13,333 bases of DNA from an uncultured Bdellovibrionales bacterium (GCA_964549925.1 CAZJXY010000053.1:1-13333), one strand, 5' to 3'; shown: positions 1,255-13,333, counted from the first letter of the stretch. Notes: a model not told the origin generated them from the sequence alone. Program-made: numbers and translations.

Positions 1255-2433
1255 ATGTCTTCTAACCCTATGAGCGTCAATTCACACCCAAGAGCGAAGA
1301 GAGTTACCAATCGAGTTAAGGTTGGCAGCACGGTTATTGGTGGCGGCGATTATATCCCCGTCCAGAGCATGTGCGCTACAAAGACCCAGGATATTGAAGC
1401 TACACTATCCCAGATCAAGTTACTCCAGAAACACGGAGCTGACATCATTCGAGTCGCCGTGGATAGTAAGAGGGATGTTGAAGCGTTGAGAAGTATTCGT
1501 GATGAAACCGATGCCAATCTGGTTGTTGATCTTCAGGAGAATTATAGGTTGGTTACAGAGCTTGCACCATTTGTGCAAAAAGTCAGATATAATCCCGGCC
1601 ATCTTCATCACCATCAGAAGGATGTAGCGGTTGAGGAGAAAGTTAAACTAATTGTAAATGCCGCAGGGGAATATGGATGTGCGCTGAGGATCGGAGTAAA
1701 TTTTGGTTCATTAGACCCGGCGCTTGCGGAACAGGGTATTGATTCACAAGATGTGGCGTTGGGATCAGCCGCCGCGCATGTCGAAATAATGGATAAACTG
1801 GGCTTTAAGGACTTTGTCGTTTCCTTAAAAAGTTCAGATCCTAACGATGTAATTGATATAAACAAAAAGTTTGCCGAACGCTTTCCAAAAGTACCTATTC
1901 ATTTGGGGGTTACCGAAGCTGGCCTTCTCCCTATGGGTGAGATTAAAACTAGAATCGCCTTTGAGAATCTTTTAGCTCTCGGCATCGGTGACACCGTTAG
2001 AGTTTCTCTAACTCTTCCCTTTGATAGGAAATATGAGGAGATTCTGGTTGGCAGACGAATCATCGAGGATGTCAAGGCGGGACGATTTAGATCGGTGCCT
2101 CGTTTTGAACAGAATGGTTTAAACATAATCTCTTGTCCTTCCTGCTCCCGAGTTGAAAACAGCGCCTTTGTTGAGTTGGCAGAGAAGGTTCGGGATCTTT
2201 CCGCATTTGCGGCCAACGAGAATTTGACGATTGCCGTAATGGGATGTCGAGTAAACGGCCCGGGCGAAACCGATGACGCTGATTTGGGTCTGTGGTGTGC
2301 GCCCAACCATGTAAATTTGAAGCGAAAATCAGAGCTTTTAGGGGCTTTTTCCTACGAAGAGATACTGCCTCGACTCAAGCTTGAGCTCGATCAGCTAATC
2401 GCCGCAAAGCATCAGCAGAAGCTCGTGGCTTAA
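1255..2433 (+). CDS. ispG: 4-hydroxy-3-methylbut-2-enyl diphosphate synthase (IspG/GcpE), MEP pathway
   Basis: The N-terminus [49 protein letters not shown] matches the IspG TIM-barrel start (VQSMTNT...DVEATV.QI...GADIVRV). The C-terminus has [12 protein letters not shown] and [12 protein letters not shown], which match CPTCSR and GCVVNGPGE, the [4Fe-4S]-binding cysteines. The 392 aa length is typical. Confidence 0.93.
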
Positions 2434-2651
2434 ACAGCGAGGGTGCCGCTGGGATAAAAGGCTGTAATTTCGATAAATTACCGGTTAAACCAAAGCTGCA
2501 AACTCTCTAAGCACAGATTGAAAAAACTTAGTCATAACAGCTTCATAGGGCAGTAGATTAACGGTTTAGGAAGTATACTCTGGCATAGTAAGTTTTATGC
2601 GAGAGTATTTATTTTCTGCGGCAAAAAATGGCTTCGCCATTATTTTGCTCG

Positions 2652-2695
2652 CCCAACGATAACCGGTTTTGCTGTCAAAACCGGTTATCGTTGGG
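2652..2695. repeat. Perfect 19-bp inverted repeat with a 6-nt spacer; each arm contains the self-palindromic octamer AACCGGTT
   Basis: cccaacgataaccggtttt (2652-2670), then gctgtc (2671-2676), then aaaaccggttatcgttggg (2677-2695). The second arm is the exact reverse complement of the first. It lies 16 nt upstream of the GGAGG SD of the downstream gene. No U-tract follows on either strand. Confidence 0.7.
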
Positions 2696-2722
2696 TATTC
2701 CAAAATTCTCGGAGGTTTTCTC

Positions 2723-5164
2723 TTGGCGAACAACTCTTCGCAAAAGGCTAGACACCTATCGGTGGTCGATGCGAATTCGCAGCTAGACTCAGCTTCAGAA
2801 CTGATCGGTCGGTTAATATCGATCGAGAGTCTGCAGCCTGGTCACTCGGCCCAACTGAACCGCTACACCGAATTGGCGAAGATTTCTGGAACTATTGTTG
2901 GCGCTGTTTGTGGAGCGGAAAGCTGGGATGTTCGTCCAGTTGTGTTGCGAGCCGGGAGACTTTCAATTTATAGATTTACAAACCCTGCCTGGATCATCGA
3001 ACGAGCCAAACTCGATCACTTTAAAGTCCAGGTTGTACGGATTGGAGTTGAAAAATCAATCTATCTCTCCAGTGGAGAGAATCAGGGTCAAGCTTGGATT
3101 GAACGTCGTTACTTCGACGCGCTACTAGATGGCACCCAAAGCAATCAGCATGCCTTCTTTTCTCTGCATCCAGTAATCCAAGCACAAAATCTAATAACGC
3201 TTGTAGAATCGACTTCACAAAAAGGGATTGTCCACGGACACATTAACGCATCGAATGTCGCGGTCGACGGCGACTCTGCTTACCTAATCGACCACATCTT
3301 CAGATCTGTTGGTAGCAATGCTCAACAAACCGATATCGCACCGGAAGTTAGCGCCGGTCTAGGAGCCTCAAAACAGAGCGACATTTTCGGACTCGGTATC
3401 GTCCTTCGGACGGTACTAGGAACTCAACTTGGATATGATCATTCAGCTCTACTTCAAAAAATGCTTGCGGCGGAACCAAGTCAACGACCAACGTTTAATG
3501 AAATAAAAAGAGCGTTTGGACTCTCCGTGGAGCAGCAGTCGTCTGGTTCGGCGATTAAGGATGATCGCGGAAGAATTATAAATGCTGGTAGTGCTCTGCC
3601 GAGGGGGAAAGTCATTCAACCGGTTGAAGTAAATCTCAGCGCCGCGGTTCAGCCAATCGAAGTTAAACAGATTAGATCCATACCTACCGATCATATTTCG
3701 AAGCAAGTACCCTCCAGCGCTATCGAGAATAAGCAGAGTGTAGAAACAACAAGCGGCTTTGGCTTTGGATTATTAGTATTACTTGGACTCGCTCTGATTA
3801 CGGGACTCACATTGCAGCGTTCGGGGTATCTAAGCTCTAGCGAGAGCGTTACAGAGATATCCGAGCCACCCGCAGTTGCAGCACCAGATGCTTCTAAATT
3901 ATCAGCCCTGTGGTTTAGTTCGCAACCATCTTTGATGAGCGAGGTTGCAAGGCTTGCGGTAAAAAATGGCGATAGAGTTGCACAGTCAGTAATCGTTTCT
4001 CAGGCCCTGTCTGGACGAGAAGTACCAGCAGTCCGATCTGGATTAATCGCCACTGCATTCGATCCGGCTTGGGAGGCACAGTTGAGCGAAAGCGACCGGC
4101 GGCTTGCGATAGGGTTGGCCACCGCAGCAATCGCACCTGATAACTTAGTTGACCTTCCGGAACTTGGCACAGCCCATGCGGGAGTTGTCTTAGCTATGCT
4201 AGTCCAGATGGAGCCCCAGAGCGGATCTAAGGAACTTGCGGCCATTCCCGTCGGTACATTGGCTGTTTTACCCCAGCCCTACGGTCCGGCCTTTGCTGCG
4301 CTCCAGCGCGAAGGTGTAGGCTCAGTTGATGAGGTATCAGCGCAAGCGTTAGCCCATATCTTAAGGAATGGATTATCGCCTGAGTTAATTAAGATATTTC
4401 TGGCCGAGAATCCGCTTAAAAAACTGCTGATCATATTGCCGATGCTCTCCTCCAAAGGACGAGAGGCTCGAGAAGAGGTATGGAAGGTTATCTCGGAGCA
4501 TAATGATCTAAGATCCTTTACGGAGTGGTTTGCGCAAGAAAAGGCTCCAGAATGGGACAAAGTTGCCCCAGAACAGAAGCTCGCATTGGTAAGCGGCATA
4601 GTTATCACCGAGGGGTTAAACCAGCTTCAGATTGCAGATTTGATCACATTCCCTTCAGCTACAGTAAGGGCCGCTGCGAAAACAGCCTTAATTACAAAAT
4701 TGGGCAACTCAAGCCAGAAATTTTTGGAGTTCTTGCTCTCCCCATCAAATCGCCTAGATCGAGGCAGGGTACTGGCGCTCTTAACTACACTGATGTTGCC
4801 TGAAGAGGACGCCACCGCTTTGCTAATGAACTGGTTTGCCAAAAATCCAGACGCTGCGAGTATCGCTTCTATTCTGGTCTCTCGAAATGGCTTAAGTGAG
4901 ACGGACCAGTTGAGTGAGCAGGCCGCTGATTATCTACTAAAACTAAAATTTAAACCGACACTACCTCAGATTAAAGCTCTCTCTACCCACCCAGTCCCAC
5001 TTGCAAGAACGGTCGCCTACGTCAATCTGAATCCGATCGATCCTAAGGAACGCTCGCTACTACTTAATATGGCTAAAACAGAGCAGGATCCTAAGATTCG
5101 AGAAGCAATCCAGGCCAAAATAAAGATGGGCGACGAGATAAGGGCACTAAATCAAGCCCTCTAA
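2723..5164 (+). CDS. Single-pass membrane protein: N-terminal degenerate Ser/Thr protein-kinase-like domain (predicted pseudokinase), TM helix, C-terminal HEAT/PBS-lyase-like repeat domain
   Basis: The ORF track opens at TTG 2669. That TTG sits inside the palindrome and has no SD. An in-frame TTG at 2723 has GGAGG (2711-2715) with a 7-nt spacer, so I prefer it as the start.
- Kinase fold: a Gly-rich loop ISGTIVGAVCGA, then VVLRA in place of VAIK, with Lys replaced by Arg.
- Catalytic loop IVHGHINASNV in place of HRDLKPSN, at 3233-3241. The Asp and the Lys are both lost.
- LIDHIF in place of DFG, at 3290-3298.
- APE and the following DIFGLGIVL are retained, at 3338 onward.
- TM helix FGFGLLVLLGLALITGLTL at about 3755-3817.
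- A C-terminal domain of about 450 aa with repeated xxVRxAAxxALxxLG-type helix pairs, for example ATVRAAAKTALITKLG, PLARTVAYVNLNP and DPKIREAIQAKIKMG. Confidence 0.75.
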   Translation: MANNSSQKARHLSVVDANSQLDSASELIGRLISIESLQPGHSAQLNRYTELAKISGTIVGAVCGAESWDVRPVVLRAGRLSIYRFTNPAWIIERAKLDHFKVQVVRIGVEKSIYLSSGENQGQAWIERRYFDALLDGTQSNQHAFFSLHPVIQAQNLITLVESTSQKGIVHGHINASNVAVDGDSAYLIDHIFRSVGSNAQQTDIAPEVSAGLGASKQSDIFGLGIVLRTVLGTQLGYDHSALLQKMLAAEPSQRPTFNEIKRAFGLSVEQQSSGSAIKDDRGRIINAGSALPRGKVIQPVEVNLSAAVQPIEVKQIRSIPTDHISKQVPSSAIENKQSVETTSGFGFGLLVLLGLALITGLTLQRSGYLSSSESVTEISEPPAVAAPDASKLSALWFSSQPSLMSEVARLAVKNGDRVAQSVIVSQALSGREVPAVRSGLIATAFDPAWEAQLSESDRRLAIGLATAAIAPDNLVDLPELGTAHAGVVLAMLVQMEPQSGSKELAAIPVGTLAVLPQPYGPAFAALQREGVGSVDEVSAQALAHILRNGLSPELIKIFLAENPLKKLLIILPMLSSKGREAREEVWKVISEHNDLRSFTEWFAQEKAPEWDKVAPEQKLALVSGIVITEGLNQLQIADLITFPSATVRAAAKTALITKLGNSSQKFLEFLLSPSNRLDRGRVLALLTTLMLPEEDATALLMNWFAKNPDAASIASILVSRNGLSETDQLSEQAADYLLKLKFKPTLPQIKALSTHPVPLARTVAYVNLNPIDPKERSLLLNMAKTEQDPKIREAIQAKIKMGDEIRALNQAL
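3755..3817 (+). other. Predicted transmembrane helix of the pseudokinase protein
   Basis: Twenty-one consecutive hydrophobic or small residues, GFGFGLLVLLGLALITGLTLQ, flanked by polar sequence. It is the only such segment in the 831-aa ORF. Confidence 0.6.
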
Positions 5165-5249
5165 AGCAGTTGCAATCTCTCTCCCCAAGTCCTATCTATA
5201 CCCATCGGTGTATTATTGGTTAACCATATACGGTTAGATTTGGAGTGTT

Positions 5250-6046: not shown

Positions 6047-7003
6047 ATGGAAGCATTTATCCCAGTAATGGTGGTAGTCGGATTGCCGCTTTTAATCATT
6101 TTGGCTTTCTCGTTTTATACTGTACAGCAGCAATCATCTGCTATCATTGAGCGCTTCGGAAAGTTTCAGCGCATTGCCGGTCCGGGGCTGAATTTAAAAA
6201 TCCCAATCATCGATCGAATCGCTGACCGAGTAACATTGCGGCTTCAACAGCTCGATGTTCGGATTGAGACTAAGACCGAAGATAACGTCTTTGTAACGAT
6301 ACTAGTCTCGGTTCAGTATTTCGTTAAGCCTGATCGGGTTTATGAGGCACACTACCGGCTTACGGATCCAGGTGCTCAGATTACTTCGTTTGTTTTTGAT
6401 GTGGTCAGAGCCAGAGTTCCGAGAATGAAGCTTGATGACGTTTTTGAGAAGAAAGATGAGATTGCTGATGCGGTGCGATCCGAGATCTCGGCGGTGATGG
6501 AGGAGTTCGGATACGGAATAGTAAAAACTCTAGTTACAGATATTGAGCCTGATGGTCACGTCAAGGCCTCTATGAATGAGATTAATGCGGCGCAGCGGAT
6601 GCGTGTTGCTGCTGTCGAGCGAGGAGAAGCTGAAAGAATCATGAAGGTCAAAGCCGCTGAGGCTGAGGCTCAGAGCAAGGCGCTTCAAGGAAAGGGTATC
6701 GCTGATCAACGACGTGCGATTGTAGATGGTCTAAGAGAATCGATCGATCACTTTCAAAAAGCCGTTCCGGGTGCGAGCGCTCATGATGTGATGAATTTAG
6801 TATTGATGACTCAGTACTTCGATACCATTAAGGAGCTGGGGCATGCTTCGCACACCAATACGATCTTGCTACCGCATTCACCGGGTGGATTGGGAGATCT
6901 GATCTCGCAGATTCGGCAGACTTTAATCAGTTCAAATTTAGTAAGCACCCAAGGAATGGAGAGGGTTGCCGACGGCGAAGTGCCGAAGATGAAGCAGTGG
7001 TAG
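6047..7003 (+). CDS. SPFH/band-7 (stomatin/HflC/prohibitin-like) membrane protein
   Basis: The N-terminal TM is FIPVMVVVGLPLLIILAFSFYTV. The SPFH-domain signature IIERFGKFQRIAGPGLNLKIPIIDRI follows. A C-terminal charged coiled-coil stretch rich in Ala/Glu/Arg reads AQRMRVAAVERGEAERIMKVKAAEAEAQSKALQGKG. A strong AAGGAG SD lies 8 nt upstream. The gene starts 23 bp after the crotonase stop. Confidence 0.85.
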   Translation: MEAFIPVMVVVGLPLLIILAFSFYTVQQQSSAIIERFGKFQRIAGPGLNLKIPIIDRIADRVTLRLQQLDVRIETKTEDNVFVTILVSVQYFVKPDRVYEAHYRLTDPGAQITSFVFDVVRARVPRMKLDDVFEKKDEIADAVRSEISAVMEEFGYGIVKTLVTDIEPDGHVKASMNEINAAQRMRVAAVERGEAERIMKVKAAEAEAQSKALQGKGIADQRRAIVDGLRESIDHFQKAVPGASAHDVMNLVLMTQYFDTIKELGHASHTNTILLPHSPGGLGDLISQIRQTLISSNLVSTQGMERVADGEVPKMKQW

Positions 7004-7848: not shown

Positions 7849-9261
7849 ATGCTAAGCTTTATTTTAAACGACAGAGAGGTTCAAACCGAAGCTTCTCCGG
7901 CGATGGTACTGGCTGATTTCGTGCGAGTCGAACGAGGCCTAGTTGGAACTAAGCTTGCCTGTCGAGAAGGGGACTGTGGGGCTTGTACGGCGTTGGTGGG
8001 GGAATTGAATGGCGCGAACCTTTCGTATCGCGCTGTAACATCCTGCATATATCCTCTCGGGAACGTAGCTGGAAAGCACGTAGTAACAATCGAAGGTTTA
8101 AATCAAATGGAGATTACCCCCATTCAGCAGGCTATCGTTGCTAGCGGTGGGACCCAATGTGGATTCTGTACACCAGGCTTTGTGGTCGCCTTGACAGCGC
8201 TATTTCTCAAAAAGAGAGAATTTGATCCGACTAGCGCTTGTGCCGAACTTGATGGAAACATTTGCAGGTGTACCGGTTACAAATCAATCGAACGAGCAGT
8301 CGAGAAGTTGTCCGAACAGTTTGGGTCTAACTCAAATCTTGATCAAGATAGGATTGATGAGCTTGTAAAATGGAATATCCTGCCTAGCCAATTCCTTGGA
8401 ATATCAGCGCGACTCGGCGCGCTAAATCAGGTCCAAAAAAAGATTTCAAATATTTCTGAGCGCAAAATTGTAGGCGGTGGGACGGATCTATATGTCCAGA
8501 TACCTGAGCAGATGCTTGAAAAGGAGATATTTCTATCAAGGGAACGGCAGAAGCTAAAAGGCATTAAATTTAAGGGTGGAAAGTGTACCATTGGAGCAGC
8601 CACAACTCTTGAGGAGCTGCGTGAGTCTGTGGAATTAAATACGGCGATTCCGAGATTGAGCGAGTATCTAAAGCTGTTTGGCTCGACCCCGATTCGACAG
8701 ATGGCGACAATCGGAGGAAATCTGGTTAATGCTTCCCCAATTGGTGATTCAACCGCGCTATTTTTAGCTCTAGATTCGGAAATTATAGTGGGAGATAACG
8801 AGCGAACGCGGGAACTAGAGCTTAAAGATTTTTACTTAGGGTATAAGAAGTTAGATCTGAAGAAGGGGGAGATGGTTCTAGCACTGCGATTTTCTATTCC
8901 TACTGCTACATCAAAGATCAATTTTGAAAAGGTGTCGCGAAGAACCTATTTGGATATTGCCAGTGTTAATTCGGGAATCCATTTGAAATTGCAATCTGGG
9001 AGAATCACTGCTGGCACAATCTCGGCCGGTGGTGTTGCCCCGATTCCGATGGTCCTAAGCGAGGCATCGAAGTTTTTATGCGGCAAGGAAGTAGGAATTA
9101 CCACAATAAAAAAGGTTGTGGAGATTGCCCAAGTCGAGATTTCTCCAATCTCTGATGTGCGCGGAACGAGCGAGTACAAACGCCTGCTTCTGAGACAGCT
9201 TATTTATGCTCATTTTATCAATTGTTTTCCGGAAAAAGTTTCCCTTGGGCAATTAATATGA
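7849..9261 (+). CDS. xdhA: Xanthine dehydrogenase small subunit (2Fe-2S ferredoxin-like, [2Fe-2S] helical and FAD-binding domains), XdhA
   Basis: - First cluster, plant-type ferredoxin cysteines: CREGDCGACT...SC.
- Second [2Fe-2S] cluster: CGFCTPGF...CRCTGY.
- FAD/CO-dehydrogenase flavoprotein domain: IVGGGTDLYVQ, with the downstream ATIGGNL.
- The 470 aa length is typical of XdhA. Confidence 0.9.
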   Translation: MLSFILNDREVQTEASPAMVLADFVRVERGLVGTKLACREGDCGACTALVGELNGANLSYRAVTSCIYPLGNVAGKHVVTIEGLNQMEITPIQQAIVASGGTQCGFCTPGFVVALTALFLKKREFDPTSACAELDGNICRCTGYKSIERAVEKLSEQFGSNSNLDQDRIDELVKWNILPSQFLGISARLGALNQVQKKISNISERKIVGGGTDLYVQIPEQMLEKEIFLSRERQKLKGIKFKGGKCTIGAATTLEELRESVELNTAIPRLSEYLKLFGSTPIRQMATIGGNLVNASPIGDSTALFLALDSEIIVGDNERTRELELKDFYLGYKKLDLKKGEMVLALRFSIPTATSKINFEKVSRRTYLDIASVNSGIHLKLQSGRITAGTISAGGVAPIPMVLSEASKFLCGKEVGITTIKKVVEIAQVEISPISDVRGTSEYKRLLLRQLIYAHFINCFPEKVSLGQLI

Positions 9262-11522
9262 CGAACGTTGACGGCTTTGGGCATACGCGCGGCGATTCGC
9301 TTTTCATCGACGATATCCCACTTCTTAATGGCACTCTGTTCGGAGTGCCATTTCCGGCTCCCGTAGCCCATGCCAAGATAAAGAAATTAGATTTTTCGAA
9401 AGCTGAAAAGCTTCCTGGAGTGGTCAAGGTGCTAAGCGCCAGAGACATTCCGGGTGTAAATCAAATCGGTGGAATCTTCCCGGATGAGCCTCTGTTTGAT
9501 AATCACGAGATTCATTATCGTTGCCAACCCCTGGCATTAGTCATCGCTGAAAGTGAAGCACAAGCTAGAAAGGCTTTATCCGCTATAGTTCTTGAGTACG
9601 ACGAACTAACCCCGGTAATAGATCCGCGCGAGGCCGCACGTCTCGGATTACTGATCATGCCGCCTGTGACTTTTGCCTGCGGCGATATCGAAAGCATCTG
9701 GTCTAAGTGTGATCTTGTGGTTGAAGGAAGCACAGAAAGCGGCGGCCAAGAACACCTTTACTTAGAAACTCAAGGTGCGATCGCATCTTTGACAGAAGAT
9801 GGCGGAGTGACGATTACTTCCTCCACTCAAGGACCGACTGCAGTGCAGCGCGCTGCGGCCCAGGTGCTTAACCTTCCGATGCATAAGATTGAAGTTTTGG
9901 TGCATAGATTAGGGGGTGGTTTTGGGGGAAAGGAGGATCAAGCAACTCCTTGGGCAGTTATGGCTGCGCTTGGGGCTTTGATTTTGAAACGTCCGGTAAA
10001 AGTAGTGTTGCATAGAATTGAAGATATGCGCATGACCGGTAAACGCCATCCCTATTCTTCGGATTATAAGATTGGACTCACTAACCAAGGAAAAATCCTA
10101 GGCTACGAGGTTAGCTTTTATCAAAACGCTGGAGCGCACGCGGATCTCTCCCCGGCGATTCTCGGACGAACCCTCTTTCATGCCAACAATACCTACTTTA
10201 TCCCCAATCTTAAGGCTACGGCTTACAGCTGTAAGACCAATCTGCTTTCTAACACTGCCTTTCGCGGTTTCGGCGGGCCGCAAGGGATGTTTGTAATCGA
10301 GGCTGCAATTTGTCACGCTGCGCGAAAACTCGGGAGAAGACCAGCTGACATTCAAGAATTGAATTTACTTAAAGATGGTGACTCATTCCACTACGGTCAG
10401 TCGGCGAAAGCGTGCACTGCTGGAAGATGCTGGAAGAGCTGCCTGGAACGGTATAAATATGCGGAGGAAAGGGAGAGAGTAGATAGATTTAATCGTGAAA
10501 ATTCAGTCTACAAGAAGGGACTGGCGGTAATGCCGATCTGCTTCGGAATTTCATTTACCAAAACGCAGATGAATCAGGCCAGCTCGCTTGTACATGTATA
10601 CACTGATGGCAGCGTGGGTGTAACGACGGCGGCTGTAGAGATGGGACAGGGGGTTAACACAAAGCTAGTAGAGGTTGTATCGCGGATCCTCTCAATTTCC
10701 CCTAGACGCGTGAGGATTCAGACCACATCCACAAATAAAATAGCCAACACATTTCCCTCTGCCGCTAGTGCTGAGTCCGACTTGAATGGAAATGCCACGG
10801 CGATTGCTTGTCGGCAGATTAAGCAGAGGATGTTGGACGAAGCGGCATATGTGCTGGGTGAAAGCGGCTCATCTGGCATCGAACTAAAAGATGAAGTCTT
10901 TTACTCACGCCTCAAAAAGCGAGGGGTGAGTTGGCACGAAATTTTGGAGTCTGCGCATAAGCGCAGAGTTAATCTCTCAGCGCATGCTCATTACGCTACC
11001 CCTGATATCCATTTCAATCTTGAAACTAAGAAGGGCGAGCCTTTTGCCTACCATGTTTATGGCACTGCGCTGGTTGAAGTAACCGTGGATTGTCTGCATG
11101 GAACCCTAAAGATAGATTCAGTGCAGCTTGTTCATGATTACGGAACATCGATTGATCCGATTACCGATCTAGGTCAAACCGAAGGAGGATTAGTTCAGGG
11201 TCTTGGTTGGATGACCCTTGAAGAGGTGGTTTATAATAACCAGGGGAAGCTATTAGCCGATACTTTCTCGAGCTATAAGATTCCGGACATGAACTTTGCG
11301 CCGACTAGGCTTGAGGTGCATTTTCTCGAGAATTCCCATAATCCTGTAGGGGTGCTGGGATCTAAAGCTGTGGGCGAGCCGCCTTTAATGTACGGCATCG
11401 GCGCTTACTTTGCAGCCGAGGAAGCGATTCGTGCCTTTCGTCCCGGTGTCAAACTCAAGGTTCATGCTCCGATGACAAACGAGCGAATATTACTCTCTCT
11501 TTATCAGTCCGATCTGGATTAA
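9258..11522 (+). CDS. xdhB: Xanthine dehydrogenase molybdopterin-binding large subunit, XdhB
   Basis: The ATG at 9258 overlaps the xdhA TGA (ATGA, 9258-9261). The ORF-track start at 9222 is an upstream TTG. The N-terminus MTNVDGFGHTRGDSLFIDDIP matches the XdhB start. Mo-co motifs GGGFGGKE, AFRGFGGPQG and C-terminal GEPPLMYGIGAYFA are present. Confidence 0.9.
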   Translation: MTNVDGFGHTRGDSLFIDDIPLLNGTLFGVPFPAPVAHAKIKKLDFSKAEKLPGVVKVLSARDIPGVNQIGGIFPDEPLFDNHEIHYRCQPLALVIAESEAQARKALSAIVLEYDELTPVIDPREAARLGLLIMPPVTFACGDIESIWSKCDLVVEGSTESGGQEHLYLETQGAIASLTEDGGVTITSSTQGPTAVQRAAAQVLNLPMHKIEVLVHRLGGGFGGKEDQATPWAVMAALGALILKRPVKVVLHRIEDMRMTGKRHPYSSDYKIGLTNQGKILGYEVSFYQNAGAHADLSPAILGRTLFHANNTYFIPNLKATAYSCKTNLLSNTAFRGFGGPQGMFVIEAAICHAARKLGRRPADIQELNLLKDGDSFHYGQSAKACTAGRCWKSCLERYKYAEERERVDRFNRENSVYKKGLAVMPICFGISFTKTQMNQASSLVHVYTDGSVGVTTAAVEMGQGVNTKLVEVVSRILSISPRRVRIQTTSTNKIANTFPSAASAESDLNGNATAIACRQIKQRMLDEAAYVLGESGSSGIELKDEVFYSRLKKRGVSWHEILESAHKRRVNLSAHAHYATPDIHFNLETKKGEPFAYHVYGTALVEVTVDCLHGTLKIDSVQLVHDYGTSIDPITDLGQTEGGLVQGLGWMTLEEVVYNNQGKLLADTFSSYKIPDMNFAPTRLEVHFLENSHNPVGVLGSKAVGEPPLMYGIGAYFAAEEAIRAFRPGVKLKVHAPMTNERILLSLYQSDLD

Positions 11523-11526
11523 AGTT

Positions 11527-12729
11527 ATGTTAGAGAGTAGTCAGCTTTGGTTTGAGTATTTACTTCGATTCGCACACCTTGTTGCTGGAGTGATTTGGAT
11601 TGGTGAAAGCTTCTATTTTATCTGGTTAGATAGTGCTTTTACTCCGCCGCAAAATCCAAAGAAAAACGTCGATGGTGAAGTATTCATGGTTCACGGCGGA
11701 TTCTATTATCAGGTTGAAAAGAGAAGAATTTACCCGGGGGAGCTTCCGAACTATCTGCATTGGTTTAAATGGGCGGCCACTTCCACTTGGCTCACAGGCT
11801 TTTTGCTGTTTGTGGTGCTTTATTACTCACGCGGTGCTTCTCTATTAGTTGCACGTGCGTCTCCATCCCCCTTGCTGCCAAGTGGCATGGGCCAAAGCGG
11901 AGCGATCTGCATTAGCATGGGGCTGATATTGGTCTCTTGGATCGTATACGACTTAGTCTGGCATCCCAAGCTTTTGGAAAAAGAGCTATTTAAATCAAAA
12001 CGCTTAAGCTCACTTCTAACCCTGAGTTACTTTTCGTTATTGATCTATCTTTGCACCGAACTTTTTAACGGCAGAGGTGCATTTATCCAGATGGGTGTGA
12101 TCTGGGGAACGATGATGGTCTTAAACGTTTGGATCAGGATCCTTCCCAATCAAAAGCGCATGTTAAATTCAGCGGAAAATGGAGAGGTCCCTGATTACTC
12201 TCTGGGGTTAAAGTCAAAGACGAGATCGGTTCACAATACTTATTTCATCTTTCCTGTACTCTTAATCATGTTGAGTAATCATTTTCCAGGCATCACGGAG
12301 CATGCTCAGAATTGGCTGTTGCTCATTATCCTCTCCGTTTCAGGGGCTCTAGTTAGACACGCAATGGTGGCAAAAGATAAGCGCCAGCGCTGGACATTAC
12401 TTCCGGCAGCGCTCGGTTTACTCGCGCTGGTTTGGATGACTCAGCCCACGCGCGCCACAATACTAGATGATCATTTGGCTCGTCCCACTTATGCGGAGGT
12501 TGCAGGAATTATTTCGAATCGATGCCTTGCTTGTCATAGTTCCAACAACACCGACGATCTTTTTAAATTGGCGCCAAACGGAGTGTTGCTTGAGGACGAA
12601 TCCCATGTTCTTGGCTTGCTTCCGCGAATTTATCAACGGGTCTTTGTGGATCGCACTATGCCGTTTGGGAATAAGACCGGAATAACTGAGGAGGAGCGTG
12701 AAAAGTTAGCCCGATTTAGTAGACCCTAA
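11527..12729 (+). CDS. puuD: PuuD-type membrane urate hydroxylase with C-terminal cytochrome c domain
   Basis: The ATG lies 4 nt after the xdhB stop. The N-terminal polytopic membrane domain WFEYLLRFAHLVAGVIWIGESFYFIWLD resembles PuuD. There are several TM segments. A single C-terminal heme-c motif CLACH lies at 12523-12537 (NRCLACHSS), followed by a Met-containing segment RTMPFGNKTG. Confidence 0.75.
   Translation: MLESSQLWFEYLLRFAHLVAGVIWIGESFYFIWLDSAFTPPQNPKKNVDGEVFMVHGGFYYQVEKRRIYPGELPNYLHWFKWAATSTWLTGFLLFVVLYYSRGASLLVARASPSPLLPSGMGQSGAICISMGLILVSWIVYDLVWHPKLLEKELFKSKRLSSLLTLSYFSLLIYLCTELFNGRGAFIQMGVIWGTMMVLNVWIRILPNQKRMLNSAENGEVPDYSLGLKSKTRSVHNTYFIFPVLLIMLSNHFPGITEHAQNWLLLIILSVSGALVRHAMVAKDKRQRWTLLPAALGLLALVWMTQPTRATILDDHLARPTYAEVAGIISNRCLACHSSNNTDDLFKLAPNGVLLEDESHVLGLLPRIYQRVFVDRTMPFGNKTGITEEEREKLARFSRP
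12523..12537 (+). other. CxxCH heme c attachment motif within PuuD
   Basis: tgc ctt gct tgt cat encodes CLACH. It is the only CxxCH in the ORF. Confidence 0.7.
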
Positions 12730-13333
12730 TTCGGTTGATTCCACCGTCAGGAAAAACCTTCACCTTTATAAATCCCACCGGCTCGCGATTGTCTATCAAG
12801 AATTCCCTTGTATTTCCGGCAAAAGCCTTGACCTCAGATCTTTTAACCAAATCTCTCCATGAGCCCGCCTCTAGCGATTGCGCCCCAAGAATCTCTATCG
12901 CCATCGGATTATTATTTACGAAATATGTAAAATCAAAGACTATTGAACTTATCGGTGCGATCTTTCCCCCTAATTTGATCACCAGCTCCTCATAATGTCC
13001 GGGAATCCTGCTTCGCGCGGACTCAAACCCGTCAAACATATGTAGAGGGACAAACGGAGAAATAACTTGCGAGGCCGGGCCGTAGTGCTGGTTGGAAACT
13101 GATACTACCTCTCCACCATAATTTAAGTTAGCTCGATCCAATTTTCCGGATCCAAGATACTTGCCGATGGGAAGCGTAAGCTTTAGGGTTAGCGGCTTTT
13201 TTGATTTTGGAAGCGCGCGATCGAAGCGTCTCGGCTCGGCGGAATTGATAACTTTGAACGCGGCTGAAAGATCACTCGACAATTCAGCAAAGAGTCCCAG
13301 TCGAGAAAGACCACCGTCCGGATACATTTCAAT
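12716..13333 (-). CDS. alc: Allantoicase (allantoate amidinohydrolase), 3' part; gene continues beyond the window end
   Basis: The protein ends ...FPDGGINRIRVY*. A second PDGGLSRLGLF lies about 190 aa upstream and DGFESAR lies between them. This fits the two-repeat allantoicase architecture, where each repeat ends in PDGG.sRhR. The frame is still open at the window edge: IE precedes the apparent Met. The gene overlaps the puuD 3' end by 14 bp in convergent orientation. Confidence 0.55.
   Translation of the reverse strand: MEMYPDGGLSRLGLFAELSSDLSAAFKVINSAEPRRFDRALPKSKKPLTLKLTLPIGKYLGSGKLDRANLNYGGEVVSVSNQHYGPASQVISPFVPLHMFDGFESARSRIPGHYEELVIKLGGKIAPISSIVFDFTYFVNNNPMAIEILGAQSLEAGSWRDLVKRSEVKAFAGNTREFLIDNREPVGFIKVKVFPDGGINRIRVY

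Follow-up and report, generated by a model that had tools for sequence, protein, structure and literature searches.

A perfect 44-base palindrome in the expanded spacer between ispG and a kinase-like gene of an uncultured Bdellovibrionales bacterium

A perfect palindrome of 44 bases was found at positions 2652-2695 of the stretch of DNA analysed here (the window, an entire contig of 13,333 bp), between the isoprenoid gene ispG and a gene encoding a kinase-like membrane protein. The palindrome is a real, striking and isolated hairpin of a known general kind, and we found no evidence for a conserved regulatory system. It is specific to this lineage and was added to the junction of a gene pair that is itself conserved in all four relatives compared. 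We tentatively read it as an intercistronic RNA stem-loop, and weigh this below against other possible origins and functions.

Structure and stability of the palindrome

An inverted-repeat search of the window revealed the palindrome as CCCAACGATAACCGGTTTTG-CTGT-CAAAACCGGTTATCGTTGGG. The left arm CCCAACGATAACCGGTTTTG (2652-2671, plus strand) and the right arm CAAAACCGGTTATCGTTGGG (2676-2695), its exact reverse complement, are 20 nt each, 100% complementary and 4 nt apart, and are separated by the non-palindromic centre or tetraloop CTGT at 2672-2675. A preliminary description had recognized the perfect inverted repeat but gave it 19-bp arms around a GCTGTC loop; G2671 pairs with C2676, which makes the stem 20 bp and the loop CTGT. 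The self-complementary octamer AACCGGTT is present in each arm as described earlier (2661-2668 in the left arm and 2679-2686 in the right). The stem has a G+C content of 50%. It is preceded by TGCTCG before CCCAACG on the plus strand and by GAATA before CCCAACG on the minus strand.

RNA folding added a 21st pair to the stem, the wobble pair G2651-U2696. The isolated hairpin has a predicted free energy of -35.8 kcal/mol (z = -10.7) as RNA, with the opposite strand equally stable, and of -24.8 kcal/mol (z = -11.8) as DNA. These folds support in silico the earlier reading of the element as a stem-loop or cruciform.

The palindrome is far beyond chance. By our own arithmetic, about 1e-7 perfect 20-bp stems with a loop of 3-10 nt are expected in 13.3 kb. 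The arm 20-mer, with up to three mismatches allowed, occurs in the 13.3-kb window only as the two arms, and 0 of 200 shuffled sequences matched. No other inverted repeat of such quality was found in the window, and the longest other perfect stem in 53.6 kb from five lineages (the window and four relatives) was 9-10 bp. We infer that the palindrome is not an assembly artefact, as the arms are short and the unique flanks run into intact syntenic genes with a conserved ribosome-binding site (RBS) and N-terminus. A search of the whole window against Rfam 15 revealed no match at the gathering level; the best sub-threshold scores were at most 24 bits, against thresholds of 55 to 195 bits, and came from generic hairpin models.

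The conserved gene pair and its expanded spacer

The upstream gene, ispG (GcpE; 1255-2433, plus strand), was identified with an E-value of 4e-98, and its stop codon at 2431-2433 lies 218 nt before the palindrome, close to the 220 bp given earlier. The downstream gene (2723-5164, plus strand) encodes a kinase-like membrane protein of 813 aa, a probable pseudokinase, and starts with TTG at 2723, 27 nt downstream of the palindrome. The deposited protein P0001 has 813 aa, the N-terminus of a homologue aligns from this position (MANNSSQKARHLSVV versus MTNGSSSKIRHLSVV), and an RBS block, TC(G/A)GAGGTTTT, is common to the window and the orthologue in the relative L001 (P = 0.03). The in-frame TTG at 2669, inside the palindrome, is what a naive gene call would choose. 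Its overlap with the element had been noted and its use as the start suspected to be wrong; the N-terminus of the homologues and the common RBS block indicate that it is not the start. The GGAGG RBS of the kinase-like gene is located at 2711-2715, just downstream of the palindrome as reported, with 15 nt rather than 16 nt between it and the stem.

The N-terminal domain of the kinase-like protein has its best PDB match in PknI of M. tuberculosis (E = 5e-7). Considering that an invariant VHGHxxxxN replaces the catalytic-loop motif HRD and that APE is also invariant, the label pseudokinase appears reasonable. No Pfam family covers the protein. The remaining genes of the contig encode a crotonase, an SPFH protein, a HAD-like protein and a purine-catabolism cluster at 7849-13327, which comprises the small/FAD and molybdopterin subunits of xanthine dehydrogenase, a membrane PuuD-type urate oxidase, and a convergent allantoicase cut by the contig end. 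The contig genes include no transcription factor (HTH or LacI-family), recombinase, relaxase, transposase, REP-associated tyrosine transposase (RAYT) or phage gene, and no tRNA or tmRNA was found in the window.

The nearest relatives of ispG are proteins from metagenome-assembled genomes labelled Bdellovibrionales, Oligoflexia or Deltaproteobacteria; identity is 84% for the closest of them and at most 76% for the next, and the nearest relative of the kinase-like protein is 46% identical. An orthologous kinase-like gene lies directly after ispG, in the same direction, in four of the four relatives, at blastp E-values ranging between 4e-66 and 0. The pair spans 955-4639 in L001 (ispG 84% and kinase-like protein 46% identical to the window), 2316-5768 in L164 (75% and 29%), 719-3387 in L166 (74% and 37%) and 850-4321 in L165 (74% and 29%). 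An ispG gene followed by a gene for a kinase-like membrane protein of about 750-830 aa is thus a conserved pair in five Bdellovibrionota-like lineages. The overlap of stop and start codons in L165 implies co-transcription, and by comparison of these loci the pair is almost certainly an ancestral co-transcribed unit. The spacers are 109 nt in L001, 60 nt in L164, 125 nt in L166 and -8 nt in L165, compared with 289 nt in the window (pair at 1255-5164). The window spacer, 160-300 nt longer, represents an expansion.

None of the four orthologous spacers contains the palindrome, an AACCGGTT word or a comparably strong fold. As the spacers of the relatives lack it and no other perfect stem longer than 10 bp exists in the 53.6 kb, the palindrome is lineage-specific, an addition to the ancestral operon junction; its perfect arms suggest that it is probably young and the addition recent. 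A search for an ancestral arm by comparison with the L001 leader was unsuccessful: the arm was not significant, and only the RBS block was common to both.

No other non-coding stretch of the contig comes close to the 289-nt spacer in length. As a whole the spacer folds at z ~ -8.4 into four consecutive hairpins, the last of which is the palindrome. The others are a small hairpin GTAATTT-CGAT-AAATTAC at 2460-2486 (plus strand), which overlaps the word ATTACCGGTT at 2477-2486; a hairpin at 2569-2616 (plus strand) formed by the inverted repeat ATACTCTGGCATA / TATGCGAGAGTAT (-19 kcal/mol, z = -6.6); and a hairpin at 2620-2649 with the core AATGGC-TTC-GCCATT followed by ATTTTG (-12.9 kcal/mol, z = -3.6), which ends 2 nt before the palindrome. 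Preceded by an A-tract and followed by a T-tract, the hairpin at 2620-2649 is terminator-like on both strands and looks like a weak bidirectional terminator; the only site in the spacer flagged by a terminator scan, 2627-2641, lies within it. Terminator-like sites in the window as a whole are not enriched over shuffled sequences (9 found, 13.8 expected). In the predicted folds, the RBS and the start codon of the kinase-like gene remain unpaired or weakly paired.

The palindrome itself is skipped by the terminator scan and is followed by TATTCCAAAATT, which contains no U-tract, in agreement with the earlier statement that it is not a classic intrinsic terminator. In L164, 9-bp perfect hairpins without a U-tract (GTGGGCGGC-tcgc-GCCGCCCAC, then TAGGTTG) lie directly 3' of genes at 808-830 and 6190-6212. 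The missing U-tract alone therefore does not exclude a 3'-end role in this clade, in which canonical terminators may be uncommon.

A promoter scan detected no sigma-70-like promoter anywhere in the spacer, and small open reading frames in it were unconvincing. Read on the minus strand, the palindrome is followed by the 2620-2649 hairpin and a U6 run, which is the layout of a small RNA. No convincing promoter supports such a minus-strand small RNA: the sole promoter-like hexamers, TTGTTC-17-GAGAAT, match 7 of 12 positions and fall below the scan threshold.

Further copies and alternative explanations

Copies of the palindrome were sought in several sequence collections. No second copy of the arm 20-mer with up to three mismatches exists in the 13.3-kb contig, and no copy of the palindrome was found in 40 kb from the loci of the relatives. 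The arm 18-mer CAACGATAACCGGTTTTG gave 36 matches in the GTDB representatives (596 Gb, 185,579 genomes, a set to which the source genome does not belong). The matches are single arms in diverse taxa without a partner arm nearby, and thus fit chance; as a palindrome, the arm does not recur in this set. Several genomes, mostly of Bacteroidota, have CAACGATAACCGGTTTTG within an apparently single conserved coding sequence, in the context CATCATTTGGGTAGCAACGATAACCGGTTTTG, and this looks like a coincidental conserved peptide motif unrelated to the palindrome (loci around an 18-mer match: L011, L015, L018, L019, L025, L026, L027, L030, L031 and L033). The pattern used for a metagenome scan, AACCGGTTTT-N(2-8)-AAAACCGGTT, was too generic and returned at least 120 metagenome stretches. 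Among the matches listed (125 loci with 132 matches, from 120 metagenome stretches and 5 viral ones), the outer arm CCCAACGATA is absent, and the matches are A/T-tract terminator hairpins or AAACCGGTTT arrays. Viral contigs and phages contained nothing relevant to the palindrome. In plasmids (7.3 Gb) the hairpin itself was unmatched, and two matches outside the palindrome were at chance level (E = 0.5).

Two side observations came from the metagenome matches. The arrangement AACCGGTTTT-loop-AAAACCGGTT is very common in metagenomes and, among the matches listed, belongs mostly to A/T-tract terminators (L039-L158). The AAACCGGTTT arrays, with a period of about 20 nt, occur in several metagenome contigs (L122 1423-1490, L128 526-573, L129 824-999 and many contigs of sample Ga0081606); they are iteron- or satellite-like and unrelated to the palindrome.

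The palindrome could be one copy of a selfish REP/REPIN- or MITE-like element dispersed in this genome, with any effects on mRNA as a by-product, which we consider somewhat unlikely. Absence from all four orthologous junctions together with the longer spacer of the window, perfect arms as for a young copy, and the degenerate arm-like word CGATAA-ATT-ACCGGTT at 2471-2486, which resembles a decayed arm with a 3-nt insertion, would all suit such an element. The two REPs of Pseudomonas REPINs are separated by a much longer spacer than the 4 nt found here. Like the REPs and REPINs of E. coli and Pseudomonas, the palindrome is a short extragenic element between co-directional genes, an inverted doublet whose two units jointly form a hairpin in single-stranded DNA or mRNA, and a member of a hairpin cluster (PMC3479197, PMC3116915). 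REPs form such clusters too, called BIMEs (bacterial interspersed mosaic elements). The short palindrome in each arm also resembles REPIN architecture (PMC3116915). However, REPs carry a conserved GTAG 5' of the hairpin foot and have an imperfect stem (PMC3479197), whereas neither GTAG nor CTAC occurs in 2646-2700 and the stem has no mismatches. The octamer inside each arm is loopless and cannot fold alone. The flanks GCTCG and TATTC form no target-site duplication, and with no direct repeat at its borders and only 4 nt of internal sequence the palindrome does not have the makeup of a MITE. It is known from one copy, the searches described above brought no second one, and neither a RAYT nor another transposase gene is within reach on the contig. 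An origin as a functionless mutational by-product, in which a template switch perfected a quasi-palindrome or created a short inverted duplication that was tolerated in a non-essential spacer, is in our view unlikely. Perfect symmetry around a short asymmetric centre is a signature of templated copying, and inverted repeats formed by template switching are likewise perfect, non-coding and lineage-specific (PMC8794818, PMC5941160). The palindrome is not conserved in any relative and has no associated gene, known motif or Rfam family, consistent with this origin. However, inverted-repeat arms in E. coli non-coding DNA have a mean length of 5.75 nt, and those in the analysed set were shorter than 20 nt, which places a 20-nt arm at the very top for perfect inverted repeats, where it matches or exceeds the upper limit of the sets examined (PMC5941160). 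Neither arm could be shown to be ancestral in the comparison with the L001 leader, and with close relatives lacking, no ancestral quasi-palindrome can be reconstructed; moreover, the run of four hairpins suggests that the whole region is structured. A site for a site-specific recombinase or a hairpin-recognising enzyme (lox/FRT, dif, protelomerase, oriT or an IS200-type end) is very improbable. A protein dimer would fit on the arms, and lox and FRT sites have the same layout of perfect inverted arms that flank a short asymmetric spacer. The asymmetric centre is just 4 nt, however, compared with 6-8 nt in the known spacers of tyrosine recombinases (lox, FRT, dif), and protelomerase sites are fully palindromic. 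Together with the missing recombinase gene on the contig, the size of the centre led us to reject a protelomerase, dif or lox site. Relaxase, transposase and phage genes are also missing, nothing similar was found in phages, plasmids or viral contigs, and because the flanking genes are a conserved chromosomal pair, the locus is not the border of an island.

A role as a DNA operator has to be considered because of the octamer. A dimeric or tetrameric regulator would bind two sites centred on AACCGGTT, or the whole 44-bp dyad, and control a promoter of the kinase-like gene, with the words at 2477 and 2557 as auxiliary sites; we judge this decidedly unlikely. The palindrome lies just upstream of the RBS, a frequent location for operators. 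AACCGGTT occurs three times in the window (2661, 2679 and 3618), compared with 0.17 expected. However, 5% of random 20-mers contain an 8-nt palindrome, so that its nesting in an arm is only mildly surprising, and since one arm is a copy of the other, the two arm octamers represent a single event. When extended, each octamer is symmetric at no more than 10 of 12 positions. The octamer is the core of a known LacI-family operator: PtxS binds TGAAACCGGTTTCA (PMC11678583), which has the AAACCGGTT core and likewise lies near a gene start. In contrast, the outer TG/CA are missing from the arm core, which agrees with the PtxS site at only 9 of 14 positions; the palindrome has two cores, arranged as mirror images within a far longer perfect dyad; no LacI-family gene lies close by, and sugar catabolism is not the function of the gene downstream. 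Two further words in the spacer resemble the arm core ATAACCGGTT: the 10-mer ATTAACGGTT at 2557-2566 (plus strand), with two mismatches, and ATTACCGGTT at 2477-2486. The pattern ATWAMCGGTT occurs four times, all inside the spacer, compared with 0.07 expected, but it was derived post hoc from the very sites it counts; for two extra sites matching the arm 10-mer with up to two mismatches, we calculated P ~ 0.02, also post hoc. The words at 2477 and 2557 may be due to chance or be a remnant of an older copy. Of the related words listed in the preliminary description, those at 2478-2488, 2558-2568 and 5230 are present, and GGTTAACC, placed at 5217, actually lies at 5218. The case for a motif shared with the region upstream of the crotonase gene is weak, as the words there are different, GGTTAACC being distinct from AACCGGTT, and no such word occurs in the orthologous spacer of L001. 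The proposal of two tandem dyad operators is likewise weak. With 18 bp from centre to centre, two dimers would sit out of phase on nearly opposite faces of the helix, and symmetry at 20 of 20 positions, CCCAACG included, is not required of an operator. No promoter-like hexamers are found in and around the palindrome, and the motif is absent upstream of the orthologues in the four relatives and anywhere in L001. Since the contig has no regulator gene and the motif is not conserved, we give the operator reading low weight.

Proposed role in RNA and implications

Our favoured reading, at somewhat less than even confidence, is that the palindrome acts as an intercistronic RNA stem-loop, serving as an exonuclease barrier, a processing site or a partial terminator that uncouples the two cistrons. 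For its origin, its transcription and its function we propose the following model. A young lineage-specific stem-loop, together with three smaller hairpins, would have entered the once-tight spacer between ispG and the kinase-like gene, its perfect symmetry over 20 positions arising from template switching between the arms or from insertion of a small palindromic element. We infer that transcription would reach the hairpin from ispG or would include it in the 5' leader of the kinase-like gene, and that the transcript would fold into a 20-21 bp hairpin of -36 kcal/mol. Such a hairpin could have one or more of three effects: it would protect the ispG portion of the transcript from 3'->5' exonucleases and so stabilise it, would make transcription that reads through the weak U-tract hairpin just upstream pause or partly stop, or would provide enough double-stranded RNA for processing of the RNase III type. 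Under all three, the A/U-rich stretch and the GGAGG, located 15 nt downstream, would remain single-stranded, and the net effect would be that expression of ispG and of the kinase-like cistron is uncoupled.

Known systems offer partial parallels. RNase III processing sites and stabilising stem-loops are found in the early mRNA of phage T7, the pnp and rnc leaders of E. coli, the malE-malF REP and the 5' hairpin of ompA. Like these hairpins, the palindrome has a long stem of about two helical turns, lies between cistrons and leaves the downstream RBS free. The 20-21 pairs predicted in silico agree with the length of uninterrupted double-stranded RNA suited to RNase III (~20 bp or more). Known RNase III sites, however, are usually interrupted by internal loops or bulges and show conservation between relatives, and the palindrome differs in this. 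As a stable stem-loop 3' of a gene, and one that follows a weak hairpin of canonical terminator-like form, it also resembles intrinsic terminators, including the 'I-shaped' ones that have no U-tract. Canonical intrinsic-terminator stems are considerably shorter than 20 bp. In contrast to the G+C-rich, modest stem with an immediate U-tract of a canonical terminator, the palindrome has a G+C content of 50%, no U-tract, and a position 218 nt past the stop codon and just before the next RBS. Between genes, hairpins of the REP type increase the stability of upstream mRNA, and they can also terminate transcription (PMC3479197, PMC3116915). Inverted repeats and RNA hairpins can be generated, and made perfect, by template switching (PMC8794818, PMC5941160).

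The perfection of the stem is not explained by a function in RNA, which would tolerate G-U pairs and mismatches, and a hairpin of -36 kcal/mol is far stronger than known stabilisers need. A functionless origin, neutral or selfish, explains the same facts. It is also conceivable, although improbable, that the palindrome represents something new: either the first copy seen of an undescribed palindromic mobile element of an uncultured Bdellovibrionota-like lineage, REPIN-like with a perfect stem and no GTAG, or a new cis-regulatory hairpin or operator that splits the conserved ispG-pseudokinase operon into genes under separate control. The latter would be a regulatory innovation by the birth of a palindrome, caught in the act.

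If the RNA-level reading is true, a young perfect hairpin uncouples an essential isoprenoid gene from its conserved kinase-like partner, which would be of some interest for the evolution of operons and the origin of RNA hairpins. If the palindrome instead belongs to a dispersed family, it would provide a repeat class for a poorly sampled lineage related to predatory bacteria, helpful in genome assembly and typing. Neither of these two outcomes would change current understanding. The conserved pair of ispG and the HGH-motif pseudokinase may deserve more follow-up than the palindrome itself.
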